Source: Azolla caroliniana (lineage: Eukaryota; Plantae; Polypodiophyta). Taken from it: DNA of 64,000 nucleotides. The stretch is from the NCBI GenBank assembly GCA_043228905.1, contig JBHGNT010000006.1:4650001-4714000 (forward strand), written 5' to 3'. Positions 866 through 46,815 of the stretch are shown one piece after another. Position numbers and translations under genes: made by a program. Position 1 is the stretch's first letter, and every line of letters begins with the position of its first letter. Below the pieces are notes generated by a model that worked only from the letters and a program-made list of their open reading frames with translations, did not search any database and was not told the origin of the DNA.

Positions 866-868
866 ATC

Positions 869-880
869 TGGTATCAGAGC
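869..880 (+). promoter_or_regulatory. primer-binding site (tRNA-iMet)
   Basis: TGGTATCAGAGC 3 nt downstream of the 5' LTR. Confidence 0.95.
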
Positions 881-887
881 GACTGCA

Positions 888-3406: not shown

Positions 3407-3416
3407 AGGGGGAGTT

Positions 3417-4537: not shown

Positions 4538-7500
4538 CCGTGTCCGCGTTCCACCTTCCCATTCGCCTACGGATTGTACGTCGTGGTGAGCGAGAGTTTA
4601 ACTCCTAGTCGATCAAAGAACTCCTCAGCCTCTTGTGCGTCCAATTCTCCGCGGTCGGCTATGAGCTTTCCTACGCACCCGTATCGGCATACCACTTCTT
4701 CGATCAGAAATTAGCACACGGACACGGTCGTTTTGTTCGGCAATGCTCGACCTTCCTCCTGGTTCGTCAGGTCCTCTCGAGCCAGCACCAGGTATCGCAT
4801 CTGCCCTATCCCCATCGGCATCGTAACCTGATCCACCATCCACTTGAAGTGGATGGTCGGAGGGTAGGTCGGGTGGAGCTCGTCCCGATGTCGGACTATG
4901 GAGTGCATCTGACAGCTTTCGCAAGCTGTCACGAACCGATGCACATCCCGGTATAGTCCCGGCCACCAATACTTCCCCTTTAGCTTCTCGAATGTGGCCC
5001 ACGTCCCGTGGTGCCCAACGCAAGGACTTTTGTGGTACGCCACCAACAATTCCTCTTGTTCCTCTTTCTTCGCCACAACCCGGAGCGGAATGTCTTTTCT
5101 CTTCTTCGGGTGTTTCCAAATGCACCCATCTCGTAGGAAGAATCAGTACGCTTTCTTCCGAATCCGGCTGGTCTCTTCCTTCGTCCATGCCACGTCCGGT
5201 GTCATTGTCTTCAGGAACCCGCCGATCTGGAGCCACTCCCCGCCGTACATGCTCTCGTCGAACTTGTTAAGCGTTGGAGTGCTCCCCTTGTTGTTACGTA
5301 AGCCGACTTCTTCATCCTCCGAAACCATGTCGTCCTCATCATTGAATCTCGCCCTTGAAAGCATGTCGGCGATGGCGTTGTCTTTTCTGGAAATGTGTCG
5401 TATTTTTGGATTCAGGGACTTGATGTACGCTATCCACCTGAGCATTGCTAGGTCCGGTGTCGCGTATCCGGAAACCATACCAAGAATCGGCAGGTAGTCC
5501 GTCTCAATTATCACCTCCGTCCCGATCAGGTAGTCTTTGTCGGCCTTGACCGCCGAAACGATACCCTAGAGTTCGCGTTTAACCTATGGGTACCCTCGTT
5601 GTCATTCACTGAGGACTTTCGCAACAAACCGAATGGGGAATCTCGTGCCGTTCTCATCCTCCTGGTTGATCACTCATCCGATTCCGGTCGGACTCGTGTC
5701 TACGGTCACGTAAATCGGAATGTCTTTACTGTAGACCGCTTTTCGGAGTGCCGGTGCCGCAACAAGTGCTTCTTTCATTTTCCGAACTGACTTCGTATGC
5801 TCCTCTCTCCACTCAAATTTATTCCCTTTCTTCAGCAGTCCATAGAACGGCTCCGCGACGTGGGCATAATGCGGGATCCATATATGGTAGAACGCGCATG
5901 CTCCTAAGAATCTCCTAACTTCCGTGACCGAATTGCAGTCGCTCTTCATCGCGGAGATGGCCTCTACCTTGGCTGGCGACGGTTTCCGACCAAATGGCCC
6001 GCATAGGTGTCCGACGACCATGATCTCTGATTGCCCGAAGGCCGATTTTTCCCCGGAGATGGTGAGCCTTGTGCCTTCTAGTCTTCGCAACACCTTCTCG
6101 CAGTCATCGACGTGGTCCGCCACGAATTTCCGGCATCCGTCCGGTCAGATTGTCTTGTCCTTATCCTCCATCGGGCATCCTTTGATCGGGATGTCTTCTA
6201 AGAACGACATGGTGACGTCCGGGATACAATCCCTTAGGACCTTGTTCATCGCGTTCACCATGTGGGCTACCGAGTTAGTCCCTCCTTGCGGAAGGGTACA
6301 CATCTGTAATAGGCCGAGAGGAGTCTGCATCGTCGTAATGTCCCTGCTCTCCATGGCTAGTTCGAACTGATCGTACCCCGAGTACATATCACCGACTGAG
6401 TGAATCGACCTTCCGGGAAGGCCTCCATGAACTCTTCGATGGTCAGTCCGATTCCTGTGTTCCGAATGGTCACTTTGTTGACCGGCTACAGGTCTTGAAT
6501 AAAGCGCAACGTGCCGTTCTTCTTTGGCACAATAAACCACCGATTAGAATACAGGGCACTCGACGGTTCGAGGATGCCCATATCCACCTTCTGTTTCAGC
6601 AGCTCCATCAGCTTTGGGATGTGAGCTCTGGGTACTGGAATCGGTTTGAGATTCCGCGGTACATGCGGTACCGTGAAGATCACCATCGGTTCCACAATCG
6701 TCGGGTCTACGCACCCGATCTTCTCCGGCGAGAATGCGAAGGCCTTTTCGTGCCTCCCGAGCATTCTCCGAAACCGGTTCTCCTCCGTCGGCAATAGAAA
6801 GCCACCCCCCCCTCCCTTAGCGTTATGTCGGTGAATCAGTGACCTATGCCAGCCGGATCTCGTAAACTTGGGTCTGACGCGACCCCTTTAATCCGTAACT
6901 CGTTGCCCTCCGGCAAGGGTGCCACGATTGGCCTCACCTTCCGGTCCGATCCGACTTGAGTCCTCTACTGAAGTCGGCGATGACTTCGTACATCTTTTCT
7001 GTACATACCGGAATCGTTTGGTCTCCACTAAGGCCCTCTCCGAACACCTCCCGTAGCTTCCCCAAGGTGTTGTCGAAAGAGACTGCCTCCACGGCTCCGT
7101 TGATTTCCTCTCCGGGGCTGAGGACTCCGCATGCCCTGAGTCGCTCCTCTGTCCGCTTCTTCTCCCGGCCAACGACCCTAAACTTCCTAACTATGTTACA
7201 AGTTCTTCTGCCTACTATACACGTGTGGGGTTTTTCCGGAGTGTCCGGACTATCGCGGCCCCACGCCTTGATAGCCCTCTCTAAAAATCCCCTCGGCTTT
7301 CGCCGCCGAGGGTCTCTCGGTTTCGTTCATGGTTCGGTTGTACCATCAGAAACTGGACGGAGTGACGCTCGTCTTGTGTCTTTACTCGCGCGTACGCCGA
7401 CACATTGTCCAACACCTTCGTCTCCATTCGTGCCGCTGTGATGTACGGTTCCCCGAGTATCATTGGATGCGAGGATGTCTCATGCACAAAGAAGTGCTGA

Positions 7501-9955: not shown

Positions 9956-9972
9956 TGGTGAACCCGACGTGA
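9956..9972 (+). promoter_or_regulatory. primer-binding site complementary to tRNA-Trp 3' end
   Basis: TGGTGAACCCGACGTGA, the reverse complement of UCACGUCGGGUUCACCA (plant cytosolic tRNA-Trp 3' end, from memory). Lies 4 nt after the LTR end. Confidence 0.85.
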
Positions 9973-9988
9973 AAGGCGGCAAGGGAGG

Positions 9989-10790
9989 ATGGAGTCGGAA
10001 GACGACGACCTCGTGGAGAAGGTGGCCGAAGTGGTATTGGAGTCGGCACGAGTGGTGATAAGGCGAGAAGCAGTGCAACAAGCGGTTGAGCGAGTGGTCG
10101 AAAGAGTCGGATGTTTCAACGGGGACAAAGTCCCATCTTACATGGAAGACTACAATGCGGAAATGGAGGAGTGTGGCATAGAGGAGGAGTTGAGGCTGGA
10201 GTTCTTCTGTCGGGTCATAGCTTTCCGGATGCATGCGGAAATAAAGGAGCTCCGTGAGGCTCATAGTTCGTGGGAGGCCTTCGAAGAGGCGCTCCTGAAG
10301 GCATACGGAGGACGGCGGAAGAGCCGGGGACGGCACGACTTCGACTAGTGGGTAGCAACGGCAAAGACCCACCGGGGCGCTGCCAAGGCGTTTCGAGAGT
10401 TCGAGCGGCAGCTTGCTCGGCTCCCAGAGCGGGAACAAGGTTTGGTGGGGGCGGACAAGGTCCTATTGTTCGTTAGGTCGATCGACCGAGCGGAATGGAA
10501 GGCCATCGGGATTGAGCTCGAAGACGATGATGGAGCGAATGGGCTTATGGAGGACTGGTCAAAGGTCGGAAGGGTGTGCCAACGGCTAGACAACGAGCGA
10601 GCCGAGAAGGCTAAGAGGAAGGTACGCGACGGCGTGCCATCACAGCGGGAAGAGGCCGAACGGCAAAGAGAGTTGGCAAGGGTCGGCGTTGGGGCCAGGA
10701 TTGCGGAGGCATACGCAGCTCTGGAGGCGATGCTCGAGGAAGAGGAAAGACGGGGGCCGCAAGCGGAGACTGAGAAGACGGACTTCCCCA
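9989..10790 (+). pseudogene. gypsy gag N-terminal domain (element B)
   Basis: VERVGCFNGDKVPSYMEDYNAEM...KVLLFVRSIDRAEWKAIGIELEDDDGANGL aligns with gag of elements D and E (FDGRNVTKFLDAY; KTLYFLKAVD...LLEDDTQANGL). Confidence 0.8.
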
Positions 10791-11837
10791 CGCGACGGCG
10801 GAAGATCGGTACGTCGTTACCACGGGAGAGGGTGCGGAACGAAACACCCTCTCAACTTGCGGAGAAAGAACGGCCAAGGACGAGGCCGAGATACAGATCG
10901 CGGAACCGGAACGTTGGGACCAAGGGTTTCGGGCGTGTCAGCCCGAGATCCCGGTCATTGGAGAAGCAAGCCCAGACGGGGCTTGCGCGATCGGTAAGAA
11001 GACGACCGCCGACCACGAAGAGTCGGTGACTGCGGACAAGGGCGTAAAACGGACGGGCGATTCTTTGTGTCTTCCCACACTTGCTCCCGGGACAATGGCA
11101 GTCGGGCCCGAGTGCCCACATAAGTCCCAAGCGGAGGAAGGCGGCGGCGAAAGGCGTGGAATCACTGGCGAGACGATACGGGGAAGGAGCGGACGAAAGT
11201 CAACGGACCCAATTCCGGAGAACTCGGCATTCGGGCCCGTATGCCCATGTAAGACCGAGGAGATGGATGGCGGTACCGAGGAGTCCTGGCACGATGCCAA
11301 CGAAGATGGATGGGAAACGGCCTGTGAGGAGGCCGAGGATAGAAGCGGCATGAGGAAATCGGCATTCCAATACAGGTGGAGCGTGATCCGGTCGTGGATT
11401 GTTCGATCGGGGCCGGATTCGGCATGAAAGTGCCGAAACGGAAGAGGGTGCGGGACGAGCCGCCCTCTTTTACATGGGGAGAAAGACCGACCGGGCGAAG
11501 GTCAAGATTTGGGGGGGGAATGAAAGCCGGTCCTATGGGATTCCTTACATCGATTCGGCCGCCGGCCTGAGTACCGACGTGAGTCCTATAAGAGAGATCG
11601 GTGGCGACAGGAGAACGGGACTCGGCAATCCGGAGAAAGACGAACGAACCCGAGCGAGAACCGGGCGGAGCGGACTTCCGGATGACCATTCCGAGAGGGA
11701 GGAAGAGAGTTGGCCTACGAAGAGGCCGAGGACACGGTACGTCGGTACCACGGGAGAGGGTGTGGGACAAAACGCCCTCTCGGCATGCGGAAAAGGACAC
11801 CTGGGACAGGGTCAAGAAGGCGACGAACGCCCACAAA

Positions 11838-12053
11838 GGATCCTTCACACCGGTTCTAGAGACTTCGGCGGTCGGCAATGCGGTCGACGTAAGACCAAGA
11901 TACTGATAGTGGCGGCGAGGTGACGAAGGCAAAAGGGCTACGGATGGGCGGTCTACGGAGGATCCTTCACACCGGTTCTAGAGACTTCGGCAGTCGGCAA
12001 CGCGGTCGATGTAAGACCAAGATACTGACGGTGGCGGCGAGGTGACGAAGGCA
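11838..12053 (+). repeat. 122-bp tandem repeat (two near-identical units; diverged units across about 11070-13060)
   Basis: GGATCCTTCACACCGGTTCTAGAGACTTCGGC...GTAAGACCAAGATACTGA...GGTGACGAAGGCAA at 11838 and 11960. Diverged unit heads at about 11538, 12080, 12266, 12650 and 13023. Confidence 0.9.
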
Positions 12054-13070
12054 AGGGCGGAACGGAGTCCGGTCCTACGGGATCCCCACACTTAACCAGA
12101 GACTCTGGCAGTTCGGCCAACGTGGCAACATGAGACTGAGAGAGAAGGGTGGTGGCGGCGGGAAACGGGTCCCGACTATGCGAAAGACACGAGGAGAGTC
12201 CGGGAGGGACTCAAACAAAAGACACCCGAATTACGGCAGGCATAGAAACGGAGTCCGGTCCTATGGGACCCTCACACCGATCCAAAGACCCCGGCTGATC
12301 GGCCAACACGGCAACGTAAGACCGATGGAGAAGGACGGTGGTGGCAGGGAACGAGACCCGACAACACGAGGTAGTGGATAGGGAGCCGGTAAGACGGGCG
12401 GACGAAGTGCAAAACCCTCACCGGCCAGTCACGGTTTCGGAAGGAGCCGGTAGGGGCAAACACGGGGAGGTGTGTCTGGCCGAAAAGGCACACCTTGGAC
12501 AGAACAAGAGCCTCGCAAGTGGCCATCGCGGGCCGGATCGAAGCGTGACTACGGGACGGTGTTCGGTGCGGGCGGGGCCGAACGAGGTGACAAGTGCCTA
12601 GTGGACTGCACAGGGTCGGAGTCAGGGGATGGCAAGAGAGGCCAGAGGAGGATCCTCCACACTCGCTTCGTAGATCTCGGTAGCTCCGTCGAAGTAGCGA
12701 AGACTGACACGGCAAGCCGGGATGACAAGCTGGTGGGGGCGAGGGGACGACGGCAAGCGGAAGACTCACGACCTATTGCGGCAGCACGAAGACGGGAAGG
12801 GCCAAGCGGGCTACTACGGGGTGTTCCTCGGATGCAAAGGACACCAGTATGCGGGTGAGCGGCGATGCACGATCTAGCCGGAAAGGGGGCCGACAAGGAG
12901 TGCAACACATGCAGTGCCAAACAACGGACGAGGGTATGCGGCACACGGAGGTGCCGGAGTGGAAAGGCAAGCGTGGAAATAGGTTGCGCGGTTCGGAGGT
13001 AGCGCGGAGAAGGCCGGAAAGGGGATCCTCCACACCGTTCTGGAGACCATGGCGGTTCGAGCCGACGCGG

Positions 13071-13510
13071 TGTCGTGAAGAAAACCGTCCACAAGTGGAA
13101 TCGGTGCGCCGGAGCGTAGGAACCGGGTCTTCTTGCGTGTTGTACATAAGAGAGAATGTTGTACATAGAAGATCCTAGGTAGGTAGATTCGGTAGGTAGG
13201 GAGTTAATGGGAAACGGCTCCTTCCTTGCTTATAAAAGGAGTGAGACGAGGAGGGGCGCGGGATCGGGGGGGGAAGGAGGAGATGACGAAGTGCTGTCGG
13301 ATTGTGGGCCGAAGGCTTCTCTCTCTTCCAAACTCCATAGCTCCTTTTTGTGAGGTTTCGGGAGGCTCGCGCTGCTCTGAGGAATGCCCAGTGCTTCCGG
13401 CAGCACCTCCAACCTACTCCTTTCTTTCTGTGCGTTTACGAATAGGCATCAGCATCTGTTCGCCGGCCTGTTCGGTTGTAACCGATTCGTGTTCTTGTTG
13501 TTTTGTCTTG
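13071..13510 (+). mobile_element. Ty3/gypsy LTR, 3'-truncated and fused to gag sequence
   Basis: Starts TGTCGTGAAGAAAACCGTCCACAAG. Inverted homolog of about 13750-14162. Confidence 0.85.
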
Positions 13511-15442
13511 CGGAGAGCCGTACCTGGGAGGAGTTCGAAGACCGACTCCTAGAGAAATACGGGCTGGACGACGCTGTCAAGGTATCCCTCGTGGATGCGT
13601 GGAATGAGGCGGGACCTCGGGGGTCCTGTACCGAAGAACAAGAGAGAAAAGGAGTGGGGAACAGACCCAAAAGGTGCGAGCGTAGATTCACAGGGACACG
13701 GCCCTTCGACACAGAGAGACACGAATGTATGTAGAAATATATATAAACAAGACAAACAACAAGCACGAAGTCGGTTACAACCGAACAGGCCAGCGAACAG
13801 ATGCCGATGCCTGTTCGTAAACGTACAGAAAGGAAGAAGTAGGTTGGAGGTGCTGCCGGAAGCACTCGGGCATTCCTCAGAGCAGCGCGAGCCTCCCAAA
13901 ACCTGCACAGAAAGAAGCTATGGAGTTTGGAAGAGAGAGAAGCCTTCGGCCCACAATCCGACAACACTTCGTCCTCCCTTACTTTTCGATCCCCTCTCCC
14001 CTCCTTGTCTCCCTCCTTTTATAGGCAAGGGAGGAGCCGTTTCCTATTAACTTCCTACCTACCGAGGATCTTCTATGTACAACATAAGGCGCACGTGTAT
14101 GAAGAGCCGGTTCCTACGCTCCGGTGCACCAATTCCGCTTGTGGACAGTTTTCTTCACGACAACGCGCTCCGGCTTTCGAAAAGGGACTTCATGGAATGG
14201 GTGGAGTCCCCCGACAAGGGAAGAAACGCGTCGGCACTCCTTCGGGAGTTCGAAGAATGCTTTGCGCGCCTTTCGACGCTTGACCGAACCGTTCTGGATA
14301 CGAGCCGGGTCCTACTGTTCGTCAGCTCGGTGGACGAGCGGGACCGGGATCAAGTCGGCTCCTTGCTGGAAACCGAAGACGGGCTGACGACCGACTAGGC
14401 TGCGGTTAAGAGAGTCTGTGGCCGTTTCGACAAACGGCGGGAATGGGCTGACAACGGGGCGGCCGGTGCGGGCTCTGTCACAGCAAGGAGGCTTGAACTG
14501 GCACCGCAAGGGCGAAGGGAAGAAACCCGGGAATGGCTCGAAACCGGTCCGGCTTCGACCGGCATGGTCAATGGCTCGTCCGGAGGAGCAGCGGTGGAGG
14601 AGTTGACGCGGGCGATAAAGGATCTCCAGATCGCCCAGACTCGAAGGGAAGGCGGCGAACCGGCTCGTGACCGACGGCCGGCAGTAGGGAACAGGTGCAT
14701 GTGGTGCGACGAGGTCGGCCACATTCGGAAGGATTGCGGCGATTTCGCAGAGGCGTTGAGGAATCGGGTGGTGTACCTGTGGGAAAGCCGGGTGCACGCC
14801 GGCGACACCAGAAGGGCCCTAAACCGAAACGACGGGCGAGGAGGTATGAAGAGACTGATGGAAGAAGCAGCGGCCCGACACGTGGAGGCCATCCACTACT
14901 CGGCGTCAGCCGGCATTCGGGTCGGGGGCAGCGAGGCCCGAAAGGAGAGCAAAGAAGGATTCTGGTCGGCAATGCTAGAAGGCCTCGCCGGTGCACGGTT
15001 GAGGAAAGACGAAGCGGACCGCGCCGAGAGACGGGTCCGGGAAGTAACCGGGTGGAGCGACCCGATCGAGGAGAAGACGGGCTTCGTAGAAGCCGCCTGC
15101 CGGAACTACGAGGCTCTGGTAGAAGACAAACGAGTGGGGAAAGCCGGAGCGGCCCAGCCCTCACAATGGTACGAGACCCGATTCGGGCAACGACGGAACG
15201 ATGCCGGCGGGTCCAGCGCGCAAGATAACCCCAGGAAGGAAATAGAAAGGACTACGGACCTACGAAAGGTCCTAGAAGAACGGATCCTCGAAGCAAAGTG
15301 GAGTTGTCATTACGGGAGGTGCTAGGGATCGCCAAGAAGGAGTTCCACGACTCCATTGTGGACTTGGTGAAACGAAAGAGGCTGTCGACGGAGACGGAAC
15401 CGGAAAGACCGGTGGAGGTGCGGACGACGCACATCGACGACA
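13511..15442 (+). pseudogene. gypsy gag fragment (interrupted by solo LTR)
   Basis: ESRTWEEFEDRLLEKYGLDD|ALRLSKRDFMEW..., zinc knuckle CMWCDEVGHIRKDC, ...VEVRTTHIDD. Confidence 0.88.
13575..14162 (-). mobile_element. solo LTR (Ty3/gypsy) with 4-bp TSD ACGC
   Basis: TG...CA termini. ACGC at 13571-13574 and 14163-14166. Removing the LTR plus one ACGC restores gag GAC GAC GCG CTC CGG (DDALR). Confidence 0.93.
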
Positions 15443-18400
15443 ATCCGACAATCCGACAACACTTCGTCCTCCCTTACTTTTCGATCCCCTCTCCCCTCCT
15501 TGTCTCCCTCCTTTTATAGGCAAGGGAGGAGCCATTTCCTATTAACTTCCTACCTACCGAGGATCTTCTATGTACAACATAAGGCGCACGTGTATGAAGA
15601 GCCAGTTCCTACGCTCCGGTGCACCGATTCCGCTTGTGGACGGTTTTCTTCACGACATCCGCCCCCACCTAACCGCGCATTCACCGGCATGCGCCAAATT
15701 GAGTTGGGACGGAGAAAACCGGTCCAGCCTTTATTCCCCGCCCGTCGGTTCTTCTTCGGTTTCGGATCGTTCGTCGTCCCGGTCCAGGTTATCCGGATCC
15801 AGCTCGTCGTCGTGACGCTTCTTGAACGCTTTGATCCGCTTCCCAGCTACCGGTATCGCCATTCTCGTGTCGTCGAGCTCCGCCAGATGGTACGTCCCGT
15901 TGTCGTTGGCGCTTTGTACCACGTAAGGCCCGAACCACCTTCTTGCGAACTTCCGTGTTGCTCGGTGCTGGTTGTCGAGGCTGCTGTCGTAGACTAGCAC
16001 CAAGTCGCCTTCCTCGATCTTCTTCGGTCGAACCGGGCTTTGTTCCTCATCCTTGCCACCCGAAGCTTTTCCGTAGCTCGCTCTACGTCCTCCGGTCTTC
16101 GCTCGAGCTGCCGTATGCGCGCCGTCAATAGTTCCTCCCGGCTCATCTCGTCTCTCCAGTCCACGGTTGCCCATGAGGAGATCGTATGTTCCATTGGCAT
16201 GATCGGCTTCTGCCCAAACATGAGCTCTGCCGGCATGAATCCGGTTACCGAACTATGCGTAGTTCGGTCCGCCCACAACGCGTAAGGCAACAGCCGCGGC
16301 CAGTTCCCGACTTGACCTCCGCATGCCCGAACTAACGCCTTGACAATCGGTCCGTGTCCGCGCTCCACCTTCCCATTCGCCTCCGGATTGTACGCAGTGG
16401 TAAGCGAGAGCTTGACTCCTAGCCGGTCGAACAACTCCTCGGCCTCTTCGGCGTCCAACTCCCCGCGATCAGCCACGATCTTCCCGACGCACCCATACCG
16501 GCATATCACGTCCTCGATCAGGAACCGACATACGGCCGCGGTCGTTTTGTTCTGAAGGGCTCGACCTTCCACCTGGTTCGTCAGATCTTCCCGAGCCAGG
16601 ACCAGATACCGCATCTGTCCTACGCATCGTCACCAGATCTACCATCCATTTGAAGTGGATGGTCGGAGGGTACGTAGGGTGAAGCTCGTCCCGATGCCGG
16701 ACTATGGAGTGCATCTGACAGCTCTCGCAAGTTGTCACGAACCGATGCACGTCCTAGTACAGTCCCGGCCACCAGTACTTCCCCTTTATCTTCTCGAACG
16801 TGGCCCACGTTCCACGGTGTCCGGCCCAAGGGCTGTCGTGGTAGCCCGTCAGCAGCTCCTCCTGTTCTTCCTTCATCGCCACCACCCGGAGCAGGACGTC
16901 GTTCCTCTTCTTCGGGTGCTTCCATAAGTATCCGTCCCGGAGAAAGAATCGGTAAGATTTCTTCCGGATCCGGTTGGCCTCGTCCTTCGTCCACGACGCA
17001 TCCGGCGTCATCGTCCTCAAAAATCCACCGATCTGGAGCCACTCGCCGTCGTACTTGCTCTCGTCGAAGTTGTTAAGTGTCGGAGTGCTCGTCCCATCAG
17101 TCGTCACGTACGCTGCCTCGAAGAAGTCCACGTCGACTTCTTCGTCCTCCGAAACCATGCCGCCCTCGTCATCAAACCTTGCCCTCGAAAGCATGTCGGC
17201 CATGGCGTTGTCCTTTCCGGAAATGTGCCGTATTTCCGGGTCCAGGGACTTGATGTACGCTATCCACCTGAGCATCGCCAGGTCCGGTGTCGCGCATCCG
17301 GAAACCATGCCGAGAATTGGCAGGCAATCCGTCTTGATAATCATTTCTATCCCGATCAGGTAGTCTTTGTTGGCTTTTACTGCCGAAACGATACCCCAGA
17401 GTTCGCGTTTAACCTGGGCGTACCCTCGCTGTCGCTCACTGAGGACCTTCGCGCCGAATCGGATCGGGAACCGAATGCCGTCCTCGTCTTCTTGGTTGAC
17501 GACCCATCCGATCCCGGTCGGACTCGTATCCACCGTTATGTATACCGAGGTACCCTTCTCGTAGACAGCCTTCCAGAGCGCTGGTGCTGCCGCAAGAGCT
17601 TCCTTCAGCTTCCGGACCGACTCCGTGTGCTCGTCTCGCCACTTGAATTTTCGCCCTTTCTTCAGCAACCCGTATAGCGGCTCCGCAATGTGGGCGTAAT
17701 GCGGGATCCATATGTGGTAGAACGCGCACGCCCCCAGGAACCTCCGAACTTCCGTAACCGAGCTACAGTCGGTCTTCATCGCGGAGATGGCTTCTACCTT
17801 TGCCAGAGACGGCTTCCGGCCATATGGTCCACATAGGTGTCCGACCACCAGGATTTCCGATTGTCCGAAGGCCGATTTCTCCCCGGAGAAGGTGAGCCTC
17901 GCATCCTCTAGCCTTTGTAGCACCTTCTCGCAGTCGTCGATGTGTGTCGCCACGAATCGCCGGCATCCGTCCGGCCCGACTGTCTCGTCCTTCTCCTCCA
18001 CCGGGCACCCCTTGATCGGGATGTCGTCTAGAAACGGCATGGTGATGTCCGGGATGCAATCCCTCAGTACCTTGTTCATTGCATTCACCATGTGGGCTAC
18101 CGAGTTGGTCCCTCCTTGTGGCAAGGTACACATTCGCACCAGGCCGAGGGGAGTTCGCATTGTCGTAATGTCTCTGCTCTCCACGGCTAGCTGGAACTGG
18201 TCGTACCCCGAGTACAGATCACCGACCGAGTAAATCGACCTTCCGACGAAGGCCTCTGCGAACTCGTCTATGGTCGGTCCAATTCCTGCGTTCCAAATGG
18301 TCACTCTGTTGACCGGCTGCAGGTCCTGAATGAAGCGCAATGTTCCGTTTTTCTTTGGTACGGTAAACCATCGGTTCGAGTATTGGGCACTCGACGGTTC

Positions 18401-20080
18401 GAGAATGCCCATATCGACTTTTTGCCTCAATAGCTCCATCAACTTCGGGATGTGAGCTCTCGGTACTGGAATCGGCTTGAGATTCCACGACACATGTAGT
18501 ACCGTGAATATCACCATCGGCTCCACAATCGTCGGGTCTACGCACCCGATCTCTTCCGGCGAAAACGTGAAGGCTTTCCCGTGCCTTCCGAGCATTCTCC
18601 GAAACCGGTCTTCCTCCACCGGCAGTAGGAACCCGCCCCCATCGATCTTGAGCTCCCGGAGCGTCCCATCGGTGAAGGTGTGTCCTATGCAGGCCGGATC
18701 TCGTAAACTGGGGTCCGACGCAACCCCTCTGATTCGGGACTCGCTGCCCTCCGGTAAGGGTGCCGCGACGGGCCTTACCTTCTGGTCTACAGTCTTGTAC
18801 TTCGTGCTAACTCGGGCCGTCCGATCCGACCCGAGCCCCCGACTAAAGTTCGCGATGACTTTGTACATCTCTTCGGAACATACCGGTATCGTCCGGTCTT
18901 CGTTAAGGTCTTCTCCGGCTACCTCCCCCAGCATTCCCAAGGTGTCGTCGAAGGAGACCGCCTCCACGGCTCTGCTGATTTTCTCGTCCGGGCCAAGAAC
19001 TCCGCACGCTCGAAGTCGCACTTCCGCCCTTGTCTTTTCTCGACCGACGATGCCGACTATCATACACCCTCCGTTGTTGGAGCAGCAGAATTTCCTACCT
19101 ATCGTACAGGGTTCCTTTGGTTTCGGTTCTATCGTACAGACGTGGGGTCTTTCCCGAGTGTCAGGCTATCTCAGCCCCACGCCTTGGCAGCCCTCTCTAA
19201 AAATCCTCCCAGTTCTCGCCACCGAGGGATTCGCGGTTTCTCTCGTGGTTCGGCCGCACCGTCAGAAATTGAACCGAATGGCCCCCGTCCTGGCTTTTGA
19301 CCCTCGCGTAGGCCGAACCGTTGTCCAGCACCTTGGTCTCCATTCACGCCGCCGTGATGTATGGTTCCCCTAATATGACCGGGTGCGAGGATGTCTCCTG
19401 TACGAAGAAGTGCTGGTCAATCTCGACGTCGCCGATCTTGACTCGCACGTTCGGGCAGGCCCCGTGCAGTTCCTCGGTGGCGCGCGTCGCCACCTATATC
19501 TTCCACCCGTGCTTGGTGTTGATCGGCCACTTTCCCTTCTTATAGAAGTCCATGGACATTAGGTTTATTTCCGAACCGTGGTCCACCAATGCCACCACCG
19601 GTTCCTGAACATCTCCGATCTTTACCGGGGTATCCGTGGTCGCTCGGGCCCAGTGCGGCCTTGAATAGTGTCTCTCCGCCCACACATCTTCCAACGCCAT
19701 GTCGTCGATGTGCGTCGTCCGCACCTCCACCGGTCTTTCCGGTTCCATCTCCGTCGACAGCCTCTTCCGTTTCACCAGGTCCACAATGGAGTCGTGGAAC
19801 TCCTTCTTTGCGATCCCTAGCACCTCTCGCAATGACAGCTCCACTTTGCTGTCGAGAATCCGTTCTTCAAGGACCTTTCGTAGGTCCGTAGTCCTTTCTA
19901 TTTCCGTCCCCAGTCGGTATCCGCCCTTCCTGGAGTTATCTTGCGCGCTGGACCCACCGGCATCGTTCCGTCGTTGCCCGAATCGGGTCTCGTACCGTTG
20001 TGAGGGCCCGGCCGCTCCGGCTTTCCCCACTCGTTTGTCTTCTACCAGAGCCTCGTAGTTCCGGCAGGCGGCTTCTACGA
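15443..20080 (-). mobile_element. Ty3/gypsy element C: gag C-terminus, PR, RT, RNase H, integrase, PPT, partial 3' LTR (15443-15657)
   Basis: VDHGSEIN. 769-aa pol ORF 16754-19063. Integrase core 15994-16614 (ADRGE, YNPEANGKVER). GPY-type C-terminus 15731-16174 (RRWFGPY). No chromodomain. PPT at 15658-15674. Confidence 0.93.
16754..19063 (-). CDS. gypsy Pol (RT-RNase H, start of integrase), largest intact segment
   Basis: YKTVDQKVRPV, RFIQDLQPVN, DLYSGYDQF, PFLDDIP, VDTSPTGIGW, NAMADMLSR, HDSPWAGHRG. Confidence 0.9.
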   Translation of the reverse strand: MIVGIVGREKTRAEVRLRACGVLGPDEKISRAVEAVSFDDTLGMLGEVAGEDLNEDRTIPVCSEEMYKVIANFSRGLGSDRTARVSTKYKTVDQKVRPVAAPLPEGSESRIRGVASDPSLRDPACIGHTFTDGTLRELKIDGGGFLLPVEEDRFRRMLGRHGKAFTFSPEEIGCVDPTIVEPMVIFTVLHVSWNLKPIPVPRAHIPKLMELLRQKVDMGILEPSSAQYSNRWFTVPKKNGTLRFIQDLQPVNRVTIWNAGIGPTIDEFAEAFVGRSIYSVGDLYSGYDQFQLAVESRDITTMRTPLGLVRMCTLPQGGTNSVAHMVNAMNKVLRDCIPDITMPFLDDIPIKGCPVEEKDETVGPDGCRRFVATHIDDCEKVLQRLEDARLTFSGEKSAFGQSEILVVGHLCGPYGRKPSLAKVEAISAMKTDCSSVTEVRRFLGACAFYHIWIPHYAHIAEPLYGLLKKGRKFKWRDEHTESVRKLKEALAAAPALWKAVYEKGTSVYITVDTSPTGIGWVVNQEDEDGIRFPIRFGAKVLSERQRGYAQVKRELWGIVSAVKANKDYLIGIEMIIKTDCLPILGMVSGCATPDLAMLRWIAYIKSLDPEIRHISGKDNAMADMLSRARFDDEGGMVSEDEEVDVDFFEAAYVTTDGTSTPTLNNFDESKYDGEWLQIGGFLRTMTPDASWTKDEANRIRKKSYRFFLRDGYLWKHPKKRNDVLLRVVAMKEEQEELLTGYHDSPWAGHRGTWATFEKIKGKYWWPGLY

Positions 20081-21418: not shown

Positions 21419-24400
21419 ACGTTCTTGGATAAATCCCGTCTATGAATCATGCACAATCTCTAGAAGAAAGGGTTGTAATCTCAAAGCCAATAACTTAGCA
21501 TAGATTTTGTAAATTGTATTCAATAAAGTGATGGGCCGCCAACCCCTTACCTCATTCGTAAGAACATCACCTTTCGGAATGAGGCATGTTAATCCCTGTT
21601 TCCACTTTTGTGGCATAATACCTGTATTGAACATTTCTTGAAATGCTGCCAGTATATCATCGGCAATCAAATCCCAATATGTAATGAAAAAATCTCTTCC
21701 CATTCCATCTACTCCCGGGGACACATCTGGCCCAACACCTTTAATAGCTTGTAATATTTCAAAGGAGGAAAATGGACGAAGAAGCTGAAGAGGGATTTGA
21801 GATGTTACCTAAACTGTAGTAGCAACCCATACTTTTTGGCGCATTTGTAGAGTTTCAACACTTGGAGTATATGCTGATAACAACGACTCATAATAAATAG
21901 CTACAATATTCCTCATTTCATCTCTATCCATTGTAACTGTGCCATCATATCTTTTCAACTGTATAATCTGAATTTTATTTCTTTTAGGCATAACATGTTG
22001 GAATTTTTTTTTTGACATGGTGTCACCTTTTGCACACCATCTTGTTGCAGATGCTCAAAGAAAGAATTGAACATGTTTTTGCTGCAAAGAAGAAATAAGC
22101 ATTGTAGCATTTTGTAATTCACAATGAATATATTGAGAATGAGGTTGTTTTTCTTGCAAAATTTGAAGAGAAGCCAAAACTCTTTTAGCATTCAACAAAT
22201 TTCTGGTGTAACTACTTTGTTTTACCTAAGTTAACTTGTTGTATAAAGAAGTTGGAAACTGCGATAAGAGCATTCTGTAATTTTTGACAATTAGAATCCC
22301 CTATAGCCATTCTCCAAAGTGACAAAACTGTATTCTGCTAATTCATATTGTCAACAATAAACCTTGGCACATACAATCGAGAAATAGAAGTATGGTTGTC
22401 CATACAGAATTTGAGCATAATCGGGGCATGATTTGAGAACAAAGTGCCCAATATAATACCCACATATCCTCCACAATCCCAAAACAAAGAATCTACATAA
22501 AACCTATCTATTCTCAACAAATTGAGAGCGGAACTTCTTCGATTGGAACGTGAGTATAACAAGGAATCGGGCATGCGAGAGAAGGTAGGAATATGCCACA
22601 AATCAGTAACTTCATATTTGAAAATTAATTTCTCCCACTCACGCAATTCCAAACCCAAGATAGTAGCAAAAGATCTGCCTAATCTATCAATAGGGCTTTC
22701 AATCATGTTCCAATCACCACACATACACCAATTTTGTGCCACAGGAAGATCTTGCAATAACTTATTCCACAATTGAATTCTTCCAGTAGCAGAATTCGGA
22801 GCATATATATTCAAAAAACCAATCAATTTTCCAGGGATAAGAATAAGCATATACTGAACTCTACCACCAAACAAGACTCCTTTAGCTTGTACATGAGACT
22901 GCCATTGCATTCTAAGTGCGATACAAAGGCCACCTTGAGTACCAGAGGGTCCAAAAGCCGGAACCCATTCATAAATCCAATTACCACGTAGTAAATTCCT
23001 ATTCGATGCTATCCTTCGTGAATTAAGATGGTGTTCTTGAAAGCATAGCATATCAAGTCGACCTATAGAAGGTAAAGATAATTCTTGATTCATGTAACAT
23101 CTTACTCTATTACAACGACTCACACCTAACCCTTGAAGGTTCCAAGATAAAATATTAAAATAATCCATATCAAGATTGAGATGGAGAAGACCTCTTATCA
23201 GTCAAAACCACTTGTCTCTCCTTTTGAGACGAGGTTACTGCTCTTGTTATTCTTTTTTCCACACGAGAATCCTTGAATAAAACATGATGGTCTTTATATA
23301 CCCTATTTTTGCTATTCCCAAGTGCTTCTATAGTATCCTTTGCAGATGTAAAAACATACGGTGATTGCCCGACCCCTGTCTGCAAAACAGTTGAATATGA
23401 TCGAGCATCTACCTTTGGATCATTATGTTGAAATGATGTTATCATTTTCTGAACTGACGCTTTAACTTTTGTCGGAACTTGTTCTGGCATTGGGTCGATG
23501 ACTGGAACAATTTCCAAAGAGGAAATAGAAATCGGCATAACTACATCTTTTTGCAAAGCGTCCAACTACATTCATGCAATACTTAGGGAGGAGGAATGGC
23601 TAGAATGATCTCCAAAGATGGAGCAGAAACCGACATTCCTAAATCTTGCCTCAAAGTGTCCATACTACATTCCGATAGTGCAGATTGAGGGAAATTGGAG
23701 CAAATCATATCCACACATTTTCCCTTACCCACTTTATCTAATGATGTATCGAAACCCTTTGGCAACAATGAACTGACAACACTATTATTTTGCTTATTCA
23801 TAGCTACAATAGGCTTCCCATGGGCAGTCAAACAAGAAAAACATTGGTTGGGCAAACCGAAGTAAAGCACTTTCTGAATTTTTTTAAACATATTACCTTG
23901 CAGTTTTGGAAAGCAAATCCAATTAGGTAACATTGCATCTTTTTTGCAAAGTATCTTGACAGACGGAGCTCCTCCTTTTTCTACAATATCCCTAAATGTA
24001 GATGAGTTAACATGTAAAACTCTACCAATTGTTGCCTCGATTTTGTGAAGAACCTCCCTCCATTCCTTATCTAAGCCTGGAAAAACAACAGTACACGTAA
24101 AGTATCCCGTTGCCTCCACCTGTAGGACTGCCGTATCAAAACCATGGGTCCATGGGAAAAAAAGAACCCATGCACTTGAGATGTCTATGAAGTGAATGGA
24201 AAGGAGATTGTAAAAAGAAGAATGATATTCAAACTCCAATTGATAGCAACATCGGCCCATCAATTGTATATCAATAATCTTATCTAGTTTCGCCTTTAAC
24301 GCTGCTTGGAGAAGATGACGAAGATCTCCTCTACTCGGTCATTTTCCCAAAACTTGGGCAACAACCGAGCAGTGCTCGAATCATTTAACTTCATTGAGGA

Positions 24401-24818
24401 CAATGAGCTCATCTTCCGGTGCCAATTGGACATCAATAGTACCGTCAATCGTAGGAGAAGCATGAGCCGATTCATTGGATCACTCCTTGGGCGTTGACGA
24501 AGACGGTGTATACATAAACTCTTTTCTTGTGATGAGTTTGTAAGATTCCCTATTTCCTAATTAATCGTTCTCTTTTGCCTTCCAATTCCTTCTCCTTACT
24601 TTTCCCCAACCACCACCACCACTAATTTCATTTGCGTCTACTTCTCACATGAGTTGTGATGGATAATAGAGTTAATCTGGACAGAAATCAAACCTGTTGG
24701 AAGAGATATTGCAACGTAGCAGAACGAATTTGCAGCCCACTAGTTGCTTTCCTTCCTCTGTTGTGAAGACCGTGAAGCTCAGAGAAAGGAGAGAATCGCC
24801 GAATAAGGTCACGTGGGC
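21419..24818 (-). mobile_element. L1-clade LINE (ORF1 plus ORF2 endonuclease and start of RT), degenerate
   Basis: ORF1 remnants with DUF4283-like text and CFSC knuckle (23170 to about 24500). APE endonuclease ILSWNLQGL/FQEHH/NIYAPN/GDWN/RIDRFY/SNHAPI (22338-23168). RT start SPGVDG...WRPITLLNTIYKIYAK (21440-21724). The 5' boundary is approximate. Confidence 0.9.
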
Positions 24819-26229
24819 TGATCCGCAACGAACTTTCTACAACCTTCCTTATCTTTCGATTCATCTTTCTCCTCATCCGAACATCCTTTTATCGGAATAT
24901 CATCCAAGAATGGCATCGTGATGTCCGGAATGCAATCCTTCAAGACTTTATTCATGGCATTCACCATATGAGCCACCGAGCTCGTTGCGCCTTGGCGTAA
25001 GGTACACATCCGCACAAGCCCGATCGGAGTCCTCATGGTTGTAATGTCTTGACTGTCGATCGCCAATTGGAATTGGTCATATTCGGAGTAGAGATCGCCA
25101 ATGGAGTAGATGAACCGGCCCGCAAACGCTTCGGCAAATTCGTCCACGCTTGGACCGATTCCGACATTTCGAATTGTCACCTTGTTGACGGGTTGAAGAT
25201 CTTGGATGAATCGCAATGATCCATTCTTCTTCGGCACCGTGAACCACCTATTGGAGTAAGGAGCATTCGACGGTTCTAGAATTCCCATACTCACCTTCTC
25301 CTTTAAGAGCTCGATCAGCTTCGGAAGGTGTGCTCTCGAAACCGGTATCGGTTTCAAATTCCAAGGCACATGAGGCACCGTGAAGATCACCATTGGCTCT
25401 ATAACCTTTGGGTCGGCGCATCTGATTTCTCGTGGGAAGAATGCGAAAGCCTTCCCATGTCTCTCAAGCATATCGCAAAACATTCGCTCCTCTTTAGGGA
25501 GAAGGAAATCCTCCTTTCCAACTCGTAGCTTCCCTTTCGTCTCTTTGGTGAAGACATGACCTATCTTCTTCGGATCTCTTAAGCTTGGATCGTTAGCGAC
25601 TTCCTTCATCTTTTGCCAACTATCTTCCGGTAACGGAACCACAACTGGCTTGATCTTCTTATCCACCGTTTCATATTTCGTGTTGATGTCAGCTTCCTTC
25701 ATCGAGATGCCACGATGGTATTCATCGATGATAGCGTACATGTTGACAGAGTTAACCAAAATCACGCGTTGGTTGTGAAGATAGCTCAAGTCCACAACGT
25801 CCTCGATTTCGCCAATGGTGTCGTTAAATGAGGCTTCTTCCATAATATGAGTCACGAACTCTCCTTCTTCTATTATGTTCTCTTCTTTCAGCATCTTCTC
25901 AAATTCTTGTATCCAGCGCTTGTGCTTCTTGTCGGGTAGTACTAGTTTACATGCGCCACTAGGTGTGACACATGTTGCTTCTCCTTGCAATCCACGCACT
26001 CTTCTTTCTTGTGGGGTCTTGTGATTGCTCGGACTATTTGTGTCCCATGCTTCAATAGTCCGCTCTAAAAATCCGAGGATTCGCCTCCGAGACTATCTCG
26101 ATTCCTTTCATGATTGGCTCGCACCATTAGGAATTGGACCGATCTTTGGTTGTCAAGACTCTTTCTTCGTGCGAAGGCTGCTCCATTATCGAACACTTTG
26201 GTCTCCATCCGAGATGATGTGATATAAGG

Positions 26230-27957
26230 TTACCCTAGGATGACAGGATGCGACGCCGATTCTTGTACGAAGAAGTGTTGATCCATCTCCACATCCCCGA
26301 TCGTGACTTTGACATTGGGACAAGCTCCGTACAAATCCTCCGTAGACTTTGTCGCCGCGCGAATCTTCCATCCGTGGTTTGTATTGATTGGCCATCTTCT
26401 TTTTTTGTAGAAGTCGGTTGACATGAGGTTGATCTCCGAGCCGTGGTCGATCAAGGCTACCACGGTCTCTTTCTTCTCCCCGATCTTCACCGGCGTCTCC
26501 GTTGTCGCTCGTGCCCAATGGGGTCGAGTGTAGTGGCTGTCCACCATATCTTCATCGATTTCGTCTCTTGCCATCGTTATGGCATTTGTTTTTACTTTTT
26601 GCGGCTTCTCTTCTTCCTCGTCCAATTGTTGTCTCTTTCTCTTTACAAGGTCCACGATCGTGTCATGGAACTCCTTCTTCGTAATGCCAAGCAATTCCCT
26701 CAAGGACAAAGTTACATGGCTATCAAGAACTCGTTCTTCGAGAATCTTCTTTAGGTCCGTCGTCTGCTCTATGTCCGACCTTAGCTTATAGGTAGGTATA
26801 GTCCTTGTCCTCCGAGCGGGGTCTTTGACACCAACCTTCACGGGCCGAACCGTTTCTTCAACTCGTATGCCCGGCTCCCCTTTTCGGCTTGATTCTCGTT
26901 CCTCCGTTTGTAAAGGTCGACTCGTCTCCGCATCGTCCTTCTTTTTCGCGTTCCTTGTTTCATGTCTTTTTGATGGGCCTTGCTCTTCTATTCTCTTTCT
27001 CTTTTCTTCGATGAACACCTCGTGGTTGTCGCACATCACCTCTGCGAGTATGGTGTTGTCGTCCACCGGATCCGACCACCCGGTTATGCTTTGCACGCTT
27101 CGGTCCGCAAGCTCTACCTCGTTCGATGTGACTTTTCCCTTCTTCTCATATTCGAGAACGAAAGTCCAAAACTTTGCTCCCGCTCTAGCAGCTTCAATCT
27201 TGTCTTTCCCGACTCTTATTCCGGCCGACGCAGCATAGTGCATCGCATCCACATGAATCGCATCGGCATCCTCCATAGATTTCTTCATTCCTCCTCTTCC
27301 GAAATTCACCCGTAGGGGTCTTCTAGTCTCGCTTGAGCAGATCATGTTGTCCTCTATGTATACAATATTTTGTCGAATCGCCTCTCGAAGGCTCGCACAA
27401 TCCCTTCTCATGTGGTCCATGCTATCGCACCACACGCATCTAAAGGGTTCTTTTCCTTTAGGGCCCCGACGATTCATGTTGGCTAGCGTGACCTTCTCGA
27501 ACTTCTTTGCTAGCTCTTCAATGATGTCGTCATCAATCTTCTTTTCTTCCACGTTACTTTGTCTTAGCGGCTCAGCTACTTTTGGCGGTCTTGCTTTCTC
27601 CGTGGTAGTCGGTCCCGTCAAGTCGGTGTCATCAACCCATTGGCGACGCTTGTCGAGCCTATTGCATGCCCGCTTCACCGCGATCCAGTCCGCTACGAGC
27701 CCATTTGCTTGGGTATCATCTTCGAGAAGAGTCCCCAACTCCCGTCTATCCTTTATGTCCACGGCCTTCAAGAAGTACAAAGTCTTGTCCTCTTCAAGCA
27801 ACACTTGGTCCATATTGGGGAGACGACTAAACATCTGGTCGAATTCGTCGTACACCCTCGAGACGCTCATCTTCTTATTCTTCTTCTCTATCCACTTCAT
27901 CAGGGCATGTCGAGTCATCCTCGTTGAGTCTTCAGTCACGAACTCCGCTAGTATCAT
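26230..27957 (-). CDS. gypsy Gag-protease (element E), 575-aa intact segment
   Basis: Zinc knuckle, WARATTETPVKIG, ALIDHGSEINLM. Confidence 0.85.
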   Translation of the reverse strand: MILAEFVTEDSTRMTRHALMKWIEKKNKKMSVSRVYDEFDQMFSRLPNMDQVLLEEDKTLYFLKAVDIKDRRELGTLLEDDTQANGLVADWIAVKRACNRLDKRRQWVDDTDLTGPTTTEKARPPKVAEPLRQSNVEEKKIDDDIIEELAKKFEKVTLANMNRRGPKGKEPFRCVWCDSMDHMRRDCASLREAIRQNIVYIEDNMICSSETRRPLRVNFGRGGMKKSMEDADAIHVDAMHYAASAGIRVGKDKIEAARAGAKFWTFVLEYEKKGKVTSNEVELADRSVQSITGWSDPVDDNTILAEVMCDNHEVFIEEKRKRIEEQGPSKRHETRNAKKKDDAETSRPLQTEERESSRKGEPGIRVEETVRPVKVGVKDPARRTRTIPTYKLRSDIEQTTDLKKILEERVLDSHVTLSLRELLGITKKEFHDTIVDLVKRKRQQLDEEEEKPQKVKTNAITMARDEIDEDMVDSHYTRPHWARATTETPVKIGEKKETVVALIDHGSEINLMSTDFYKKRRWPINTNHGWKIRAATKSTEDLYGACPNVKVTIGDVEMDQHFFVQESASHPVILG

Positions 27958-28789
27958 TTTCTTGAACTCGGACCATGTTGTCTTACCTTCTTGAAGCTCG
28001 ATGACGCGTCTTTAGATGTTGTTGGCGACAACTCTCTTGACGCTTGCAATTTGACGTGCCTCGGACACGTCCCTCTGATTCATCTTCCTTCTATATGCAT
28101 CAAGGAACTTCGTAACGTTCCTTCCATCGAATTGGCCCTTGAGCTCTACGACACGATCGACAGCCTTCTCCACGCTCGCGTCGTTGTCCCGAGATCTCAT
28201 CATTTGCTCGACGATTAGCATCATCCTTTCGAGCTCTCTTGCTTGGTTGCTTGAGGACGCCATCTCCAAGTATTAATCTCGACTTTATCCTTCCTACCGC
28301 CTCTTTCACGTCGGGTTCACCACTTAATTATGTTGTGAAGATCCGTCACTACGCGTGGATCGTGAGGCGGAACCGCCGGGGTTCTGGACCGGAAGGATTC
28401 AAAGTCGGTACAAGCTTTGGGGCAAGCTTTAGCGAGAAAGTACTTAAGATAGATTGGGAAAGAGAGAAGTTGAGATTACACGATTGAGAAAGATTGATTG
28501 AACTTTTAACTTTAGATTTAAGAAATAAGTTACACGATCAATTTGATAACGAATTTCCTCTTCTTAATTTCATAAAAAAAACGTGTTTTTTCTCCTCCCC
28601 CTTCCTTCTTTTATAGATGCTCCCATGCATATGATGCATGTGAGGGTACAAGACATGCATAAATTGCATGTTTGCCATTTGGCGCTTATGTATTACATGT
28701 GGTGCATGATAACCATGTCACTCATTTTAGCTCTCATGTATGAGAATTTACATGTAAAAGTACAATGATAGAAATATAATTTCAACTCA

Positions 28790-28905
28790 ATAGCATGGCT
28801 TAATGGTAAGCCAATTGACTCCTAACTTGGAGGTGCAAGGTTTGAATCCTTACTTGCCCTCCTTGTATATGTATATATGTATATATATTTATATATTTAT
28901 TTATC
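28790..28905 (+). mobile_element. tRNA-derived SINE-like segment inside the LTR of element E
   Basis: A-box-like TGGCTTAATGG (28796-28806), B-box-like GGTTTGAATCC (28839-28849), then a (TA)n tail. Confidence 0.55.
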
Positions 28906-29461
28906 TAGTCGCCCGACGCCGTTTCGTCGGATGTCGTCGGTTACCGGTGCCTCGCCGATTGCCGCCGCCGGATGCCATCGGTTACCAATGCCTTGCCGGA
29001 TGCCGTCGTCTCACCGGCAGCCAGTTACCGGATTGTCGTCGGATGTCGCCAGATCACCAGCTCCATTGCCGGTCCGGTTTTGGTTGGCCAAAACCCTTTA
29101 CGAATAGTTAGCCCACCTCCACTCTTAGTTCAAGTTACCTTGACCTCTCTATGCTCCACACATAGACACAAAGATAATATCTTTTGCTCTACCTTATATA
29201 TGATGAGAGCCGTATTTGTCGTGCCTATGTGGGATATCTCACAATTTTCTCTTTTCCTTTCACAAACTTTATACCCTCATATCTTGACATTTAGTTGTTT
29301 GTTTCTCTTGTAATAAAGTGCATTCGAAACCTCCATCATTTTGTACTTAGATATTAAATTTATTTTAAATGTTATCTTCACAATTATTGTATTATGTGAT
29401 TCATACTCGATTTCGTACATTTTATGGGATTTTCACACTATTGCCGAAAATCTTCACGACA

Positions 29462-40378: not shown

Positions 40379-40492
40379 TCCAAGCAATCAAGCCCCTTTT
40401 GTAACTGCTACTCTCAACAGACTTGCTTCAAGTCCATCTAAGAGCTGAGAGAGTTTTGCTCTTCGCCCAAATGACAATCAATCTATATAGCC

Positions 40493-46107: not shown

Positions 46108-46358
46108 CTAAATATAAGGATAGGCTCTGTTTCTGAGAGAGAGAGAGAGAGAGGTAGAAGGGGGGGGGAAGCAGGGGATATGGAGGAATTGGAGCAGCGA
46201 AGGGAGGCGAACCCCCCTCTTCTCAATTCCAAAACCAACTCCCCCCAAATAAAATCACTTACATCTTCTTCTTCTCCTCCTCTTCTAAAACCAACCCTTT
46301 TATTTTAAGTACCTTACCTTACTGGTAAATTGTTACACACAAGCATTATGTATGTCTT

Positions 46359-46815
46359 GGGTTCGAAACCCAATTTTCTCACCTCATACATATCTCCTTT
46401 AATTCACTAAATGCCTGTGAATGTAGGGGTTGAACCCATGACATGCTCGGGTTTGAAACCCAATTTTCTCATCTCTCTATTAGGGGTTGAACCCATGACA
46501 TGCTCGGGTTTGAAACCCAATTTTCTCACCTCTCTATTAGATACTTCATATCTCCTTTAATTCACTAAATGCCTGTTTGAAACCCAATTTTCTCACCTCT
46601 CTATTAGATACTTCATATCTCCTTTAATTCACTAAATGCCTGTGAATGTAGGGGTTGAACCCATGACATGCTCGGGTTTGAAACCCAATTTTCTCACCTC
46701 TCTATTAGATACTTCGTCTAGACATCTCTTTTAATTCACTAGATGCCACTGTGGAATGTAGGGGTTGAACCCATGACCTCCTGGTCTCCATTGGGCAGCC
46801 TTACCAATGGGCTTT
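46359..46815 (-). repeat. tandem array derived from a tRNA-like SINE head
   Basis: tRNA-like head AGCCCATTGGTAAGGC...GGGTTCAACCCC at about 46745-46812 (-). The GGGGTTGAACCCATGAC unit occurs 4 times and the GAAACCCAATTTTCTCA unit 5 times. Confidence 0.75.

Follow-up and report, generated by a model that had tools for sequence, protein, structure and literature searches.

The window studied here, a 64,000-nucleotide stretch of the Azolla caroliniana genome (contig JBHGNT010000006.1, positions 4,650,001 to 4,714,000 of the forward strand), holds a retrotransposon copy, element E, whose reverse transcriptase (RT) is encoded in the -1 frame relative to the ORF preceding it, and the locus raises the question of whether this offset is a working signal or a decay mutation. 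A preliminary description, which set copy E beside two relatives in the window, copies A and C, had argued for function. That argument held for the family of E and for 26 diverged lineages, and copy E itself proved not to be intact. Sequence comparison makes it very probable that the family represents programmed -1 frameshifting between protease and RT in a Phygy-type LTR retrotransposon, and the signal is real, conserved and most likely functional in the intact relatives. The features concerned are listed below in window coordinates.

28331..29461, minus strand: 5' LTR of element E (blastn against a full-length family member, 94% over the first 4558 bases)
28305..28322, minus strand: primer-binding site of element E, complement of the tRNA-Trp(CCA) 3' end (18-base match; host tRNA-Trp genes by ARAGORN)
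26065..28263, minus strand: ORF1 (Gag-protease) of element E (tblastn, 95% to family ORF1; DUF4100 and weak Retrotrans_gag)
26068..26586, minus strand: retropepsin-like protease domain at the end of ORF1, copy E (LIDHGSE motif at 26454)
26068..26074, minus strand: slippery heptamer G_GAU_UUU in the ORF1 frame, copy E (sequence)
26063..26067, minus strand: 5-nt spacer, copy E, opening with the ORF1 stop UAG at 26067-26065 (heptamer to stem 1 ungapped in the 26-lineage alignment)
26054..26062, minus strand: predicted stem 1, 5' arm CGGACTATT, copy E (sequence, ViennaRNA and covariation)
26043..26048, minus strand: predicted stem 2, 5' arm, within the stem 1 loop, copy E (covariation; one pair lost here)
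26030..26038, minus strand: predicted stem 1, 3' arm AATAGTCCG, copy E (sequence, ViennaRNA and covariation)
26011..26016, minus strand: predicted stem 2, 3' arm CCCCAC, 13 nt past stem 1, copy E (sequence and covariation)
24819..26092, minus strand: ORF2 (pol: linker, RT) in the -1 frame, copy E (RVT_1 match; 93% to family ORF2 residues 5-425)
7219..7290, minus strand: homologous signal, copy A (covariance model, 70 bits)
19136..19206, minus strand: homologous signal, copy C (covariance model, 44 bits)

The GGATTTT-TAG reported for copy E is present on the minus strand at 26074-26065, and the 5-nt spacer and perfect 9-bp stem described after it were found, the stem at 26062-26054 / 26038-26030, where ViennaRNA folds it as well. 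Relative to copy A, the described stem changes G-U to A-U and C-G to U-A were confirmed, an A.G mismatch is in addition replaced by C-G, and E is indeed strongly diverged (67-68% identity to A and C around the site). The -1 frame, said to be open into RT, runs without a stop from 26092 to the end of the RT match. Folding of copy E by itself gave z -1.98, with 10 of 200 shuffles equally good; a single copy thus folds only modestly better than shuffles, and the case rests on comparison. A covariance model run over the window recovered copies A, C and E at E below 1e-5 and one other weak match (E 0.52); genome-wide it returned at least 150 scored matches, a figure that is not a copy number. The signal of copy C is one base shorter after stem 1 than in its family (compared with 29 family copies) and has a pol-frame stop in the loop, and ViennaRNA gives it an alternative long stem built upon stem 2. 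The peptide FLER(A/T)I(K/E)AW, put forward as conserved, is so in A, C and E and varies widely in further lineages; since the signal and the peptide share their nucleotides, it does not count as independent evidence.

Copy E is a decayed family member that carries an inherited signal. ORF1 has a premature TAA at 26232-26230, one stem 2 pair is lost, and the element stops at about 24819, inside RT, which is thereby truncated. A LINE-like sequence (22338-24818, minus strand) starts where element E breaks off; it has an endonuclease/exonuclease/phosphatase domain at 22338-23201 and an ORF without assigned function at 23583-24338. Elsewhere in the window, a Ty1/copia element with 621-bp LTRs that are 99.7% identical (244-4037, plus strand) is inserted among gypsy sequences and encodes gag-protease-integrase, apparently with no RT between the LTRs. 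A fragment of a related element (9956-15660, plus strand) retains part of ORF1 and a tRNA-Trp primer site at 9956; it also contains tandem repeats around 11.8-12.4 kb, and positions 13066-14167 form a large inverted repeat. An ORF for a pentatricopeptide-repeat protein lies at 40475-41995 (plus strand), and the ORF at 44611-46107 (minus strand), 498 codons of acidic low-complexity sequence without a Pfam match, is followed by tandem repeats at 46350-46740.

The E family is large: of 1112 candidates in the 523-Mb genome, 40 were scored as matches at 98-100%. Eight full-length relatives of 7.9 kb carry a 735-codon ORF1 (732-735 codons in the family) and ORF2 in the -1 frame, and in 2/8 ORF2 is fully open (1162-1170 codons). 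Pfam finds RT, RNase H and integrase domains in two complete family ORF2 proteins, and a chromodomain in neither. With the domain order GAG-PR-RT-RH-INT flanked by LTRs, the family is a Ty3/gypsy LTR retrotransposon. A 4-bp target-site duplication of the form NCGN is exact in three of the eight (ACGT, CCGT, CCGC), has one mismatch in another and could not be resolved in four; such duplications occur in sister families too. The family carries the marks of the non-chromovirus Phygy lineage, an assignment made by the following marks as given in the accessible part of PMC6317226: the NCGN 4-bp duplication, the tRNA-Trp primer site (18-base complement), a length of 7.9 kb that falls within 7656-9968 bp, and the lack by Pfam of a chromodomain or extra RNase H. 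The closest named proteins are from Physcomitrium patens. Phygy is called P. patens-specific in that part of PMC6317226, whereas the relatives found here include Riccia and Adiantum proteins. Genes for tRNA-Trp(CCA) form a tandem array with a period of about 1.2 kb at G000 C8:17.796-17.819 Mb (ARAGORN on four loci), and the same 3'-end pattern of tRNA-Trp, the E-family primer, is clustered at G000 C16:4.99-5.11 Mb.

Within the E family, 38 copies were compared, 30 chosen by similarity in the signal region and 8 by protease only. The heptamer is kept in 37/38, all nine pairs of stem 1 in 38/38 and RT at -1 in 35/38; the site is retained in 8/8 of those selected by protease only. In two of the three off-frame copies the break lies 25-45 codons 3' of an intact signal. 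The weaker loop pairing noted earlier (UGGG/CCCA) is a trait of copy E and not of its family, in which 37/38 copies form 5/5 pairs of stem 2 and copy E is the sole exception. Absence of the stem or a variable offset in other members of the E subfamily had been named as what would speak against a functional signal; stem and -1 offset hold in those members. The offset is also -1 in 18/27 copies of the A family, 24/30 of the C family and 28/30 of a family with a 710-codon ORF1, the off-frame copies in the older A and C families being attributed to decay.

Departures from this layout were seen at a few loci. At L261, L262 (G000 C1:22.58 Mb, C1099), L185 and L189, ORF1 runs on without the signal, open for 758 codons, and is directly followed by a purine tract and an LTR; these are likely non-autonomous Gag-PR-only elements. 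One copy, L264 (G000 C20:680200-682700), has an altered heptamer and a deleted pseudoknot region with pol still at -1, a state that may reflect decay.

A metagenome scan with a protease alignment gave 80 loci, of which 78 were scorable and 62 had RT in range. RT lay at -1 in 58 of these 62, at +1 in three and in frame in one, and homologous lineages 53-90% identical in protease share the same -1 offset. A heptamer of the form GG[A/U/G]UUU[U/C] was present in the ORF1 frame at 70/78 loci, the variants seen (GGAUUUU, GGAUUUC, GGGUUUU and GGUUUUC) all being X_XXY_YYZ-like. The triplet after these 70 heptamers was UAG in 27, UAA in 26, UGA in 11 and a sense codon in 6. Searches for relatives among IMG/VR viral contigs found none, and Rfam gave no meaningful match to the signal (best E 5).

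Among 120 homologous ORF1 proteins, 79 end near the protease and 41 elsewhere, many of the latter being spliced gene models. The 79 ends read xF* in 36, xF-x3-[PLS][LF]* in 35, VF[DY]* in two and otherwise in six; the two large classes include Physcomitrium patens, Riccia sorocarpa and Adiantum nelumboides, known here from protein ends. Of 20 representatives below 50% identity, 11 end in such a register, six end otherwise and three run on. In the metagenome loci L164, L175, L181, L187 and L190 the ORF1 stop is shifted into or towards stem 1 (the DF-x3-PL* type) while heptamer and register stay fixed. A guessed, narrow degenerate pattern for the DF-x3-PL type had no match in the fern's own genome, a result that does not amount to absence.

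The RNA structure was analyzed on 30 non-redundant signals, from which decayed L168, L177 and L184 were dropped, and L169 was set aside for stem 1 because of its register. The resulting 26 lineages align ungapped with 5-6 nt between heptamer and stem. Stem 1 (columns 13-25 with 33-45) has 79.9% of cells paired across these lineages, against 27-39% in slid controls, and 11 of its 13 pairs vary on both sides; in E and some other lineages, its upper four pairs are replaced by an internal loop. Stem 2 pairs columns 27-32 with a hexamer 10-15 nt past stem 1 (13 nt in 15/28 lineages). All six pairs are possible in 16/28 lineages and at least five in 24/28, and swaps on both sides occur at five positions (U-A/C-G/G-C/A-U and G-C/A-U). 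The covariation score of stem 1 was reached by 0/500 shuffles, and that of stem 2 by 0/5000 controls in which the 5' arms were exchanged between lineages with equal register freedom, both controls ignoring kinship and testing a structure drawn from the same sequences. The stem of the preliminary description thereby acquired a fuller form, in which stem 1 has up to 13 pairs and the predicted fold is a two-stem H-type pseudoknot covarying in both stems. Its long stem 1, single linking base, 5-6-bp stem 2 and 13-nt loop have the geometry of a classical H-type frameshift pseudoknot.

The position of the frame break within the polyprotein follows from the ORF1 C-terminus. An AlphaFold model of the last 173 ORF1 residues of the family has a retropepsin fold (pLDDT 78.8), and a fold search with it matched the Ddi1, XMRV and HIV-1 proteases at E 1e-6 to 1e-4, where a sequence search of the PDB gave no match. 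Asp_protease_2 clusters in the Atlas matched the ORF1 protease domain very strongly, and Pfam alone was weak (4/36 members). The putative active-site motif in the clade (window 26454) reads D-H-G and not D-T/S-G. Since the ORF1 C-terminus is modelled as a retropepsin, the shift is placed after protease and ahead of RT, and not at a gag-protease boundary.

The arrangement displays the canonical elements of a -1 site, namely a heptamer in the upstream frame, a downstream ORF at -1, and a spacer of 5-6 nt followed by a 3' structure; G_GA is a listed X_XX variant in umbra- and dianthoviruses, and the usual spacer is 5-9 nt (in the accessible part of PMC5009743). A pol-frame stop lies at most seven codons upstream in 13/26 lineages, and a pol-frame AUG within the 30 nt upstream occurs in 0/26. 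The first downstream pol-frame methionine varies from codon 4 to codon 111 and is not conserved, and the frame is open for more than 200 codons in 24/28 lineages. With the pol frame closed just upstream in half of these lineages, no upstream AUG and an unconserved methionine, entry into pol would have to take place at or beside the heptamer. Tandem -1 slippage at the heptamer is accordingly the reading in which we place strong confidence on comparative grounds. ORF1 (Gag plus protease) would end at G_GAU_UUU_UAG, where the predicted pseudoknot, 5-6 bases 3', would stall the ribosome, provided that the RNA adopts this fold inside the cell; tRNA-Asp and tRNA-Phe would slip in tandem from GAU UUU to GGA UUU, and a minority of ribosomes, set back by one base, would read on into RT-RNase H-integrase. 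A high ratio of Gag-PR to Gag-PR-Pol would result, in which protease would equal Gag in amount while rationing would fall on RT, RNase H and integrase alone.

Splicing might instead join pol to Gag-PR, as in Ogre, with UUUUAG as a 3' splice site and the stems regulating its use. Eight long Riccia gene models fuse protease to RT; the junction peptide is missing from the seven that can be aligned, and three have almost identical joins. Their junctions, however, range from 72 to 184 residues, as would be expected of predictors bridging a frame break, which suggests that the fusions reflect predicted introns, although genuine splicing may occur in Riccia. The AG is absent from 43/70 metagenome sites in which the U-run and frame are kept, the variable stop (UAG/UAA/UGA) argues against a splice acceptor, and the ORFs overlap with no non-coding spacer between them. 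We regard splicing as a very unlikely account of the family. Much the same holds for separate translation of pol, by reinitiation or from a subgenomic RNA, with the pseudoknot acting in initiation, packaging or dimerisation. Structured RNA near a stop can serve other functions, and in a sister family with pol at +1/-2, the ORF1 stop is preceded at 17-26 nt by a pol-frame AUG. Against this, the 26 lineages at -1 have neither the upstream AUG nor a conserved first methionine downstream, and such functions would not need the fixed heptamer, frame and spacer length; separate translation is hence highly improbable.

That the offset is an inherited decay mutation, with stems arising by chance or as coding by-products, might be suspected from copy E and the many other copies that are broken elsewhere. 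The offset is shared by the diverged lineages and by full-length copies with both ORFs open, and both stems show compensatory changes; on these three counts the idea is judged refuted and is left with a negligible probability. Stop-codon readthrough stimulated by a pseudoknot, as occurs in gammaretroviruses or has been proposed for Tca2, would suit a pseudoknot so closely 3' of the stop, but is ruled out, to the point of virtually no remaining chance, by an RT that lies off the ORF1 frame (-1 in 58/62, 0 in one) and by several lineages whose stop sits inside stem 1, five codons past the heptamer.

The -1 offset is not universal in the clade, as one sister family is fixed at +1/-2. Its members are locus L169 from the metagenome and a family in the fern's own genome (L221-L260 and L271-L278 in G000) whose ORF1 has 739 codons; both stems are kept, stem 2 with 6/6 pairs. 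ORF1 ends there in CAG_GUU_UUU_(G/U)AC_UAG; AG_GUU_UUU is present at 46/48 loci, and pol lies at +1/-2 at 27/31 loci, 23 of them without a stop before RT. Exact matches to the 19-base site number 86 across the genome (78 G-type, 8 U-type), against 0 for the reversed control. Eight full-length copies have NCGN duplications and the tRNA-Trp site; LTRs are identical in 4/8 and both ORFs fully open in 5/8, which indicates that recent transposition has propagated the offset and that decay is not its cause. The signal aligns ungapped to the -1 type in the pol frame, and the incoming frame alone is one base nearer the stem. In G-type copies the -1 frame meets UGA immediately. A +1 slip is poorly supported by UUU_G. 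Reinitiation at the pol-frame AUG upstream of the stop would be an alternative here, but the AUG positions differ between the two branches of the family, and AUGs in that frame are also found in 9/26 of the -1 lineages, where they would be useless. By analogy with known sites, the sister family probably uses a -2 frameshift.

In unrooted protease and RT trees, the two branches of the +1/-2 family form one clade (100/100) among -1 lineages; as the trees are unrooted, the direction of change was inferred from the spread of the -1 register. A natural switch from -1 to -2 appears likely from these sequences. A distant ORF1 fragment, P0277 (42% identity), ends in VFY* and is possibly a second origin of the +1/-2 type, known from its protein end. 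On balance, we lean towards a scheme in which a clade of moss, liverwort and fern elements rations RT by one ancient post-protease pseudoknot, and one branch would have flipped from -1 to -2 through an incoming frame one base closer, G_GAU_UUU becoming AG_GUU_UUU.

The nearest model for the sister family is the arterivirus nsp2TF -2/-1 site, RG_GUU_UUU (PMC4937337 and PMC11818727, as far as these are accessible), to which AG_GUU_UUU with pol at -2 corresponds, and where the -1 shift likewise meets an immediate stop, as in the G-type copies. PRRSV, by contrast, relies on a protein complex bound to a C-rich motif, without any RNA structure, whereas the sister family has a predicted pseudoknot shared with its -1 relatives. 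The arterivirus motif CCCANCUCC was absent downstream in the sister-family contexts examined, a predicted pseudoknot standing there instead, so that the combination of CCCANCUCC and trans-activation by nsp1beta/PCBP that defines the arterivirus site does not describe this family; at most, it would work like an arterivirus site without being one.

The -1 type has several counterparts. Ogre and Retand (Tat clade) split the polyprotein at the same place, GAG-PROT / RT-RH-INT, but in the accessible part of PMC6317226 the spacer of Ogre contains an intron, Retand has one in-frame stop, and neither is listed with an overlapping -1 frame; the non-coding spacer and conserved splice sites of the Ogre type are not found here, where the ORFs overlap. 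Beta- and deltaretroviruses (MMTV, HTLV) likewise make a -1 shift from protease into RT, at a heptamer followed by a 3' structure, but need a prior gag-pro shift (PMC5009743, as accessible), whereas here Gag and protease form one ORF. A single shift would therefore ration only RT-RH-INT. This is also the case in alpharetroviruses. The accessible text of PMC5009743 words RSV differently from that single-shift account. The G_GAU_UUU of umbra- and dianthoviruses is the same heptamer, used on plant ribosomes with a close stop (PEMV: G_GAU_UUU_UGG_UAG), though these are RNA viruses with other stimulators (PMC5009743, same part), and the likeness is one of heptamer with no sequence kinship claimed.

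In the literature within reach, the 2016 review PMC5009743 cites a 2003 survey in which every offset found in plant LTR elements having separate ORFs was +1, the 2025 review PMC12786077 names frameshifting only generally, and the accessible text of PMC7466625 on Physcomitrium elements lacks the word 'frame'. Additional file 5 of PMC6317226 gives the Phygy ORF organisation as "not determined", and the part of that paper's table available to us has no lineage with GAG-PROT overlapping RT-RH-INT. No description of the signal was found, in a search that left most subscription papers, Repbase-type annotations and two large PMC6317226 supplements uncovered. Frameshifting of this sort is a textbook mechanism, and retroviruses provide precedents for a shift placed between protease and RT; the placement and lineage are apparently new, in that they were not found in print, and an earlier mention is possible.

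The present analysis fills the gap in the ORF layout of Phygy for a very abundant family, and the overlap and frame break explain why annotators call such elements broken or invent introns. If the signal works, plant ribosomes would gain a genome-borne -1 signal of the pseudoknot type with dozens of natural variants, and protease is predicted to be made 1:1 with Gag, unlike in elements that shift before protease. Shorter spacers favour -2 over -1 (PMC4937337, PMC11818727 and PMC5009743, in their accessible parts), and the sister family makes this rule testable on a natural pair sharing one pseudoknot. If its proposed shift is true, it would be a natural -2 frameshift driven by RNA structure in a retroelement, and the two families would offer a ready pair for relating spacer tension to the direction of the shift.
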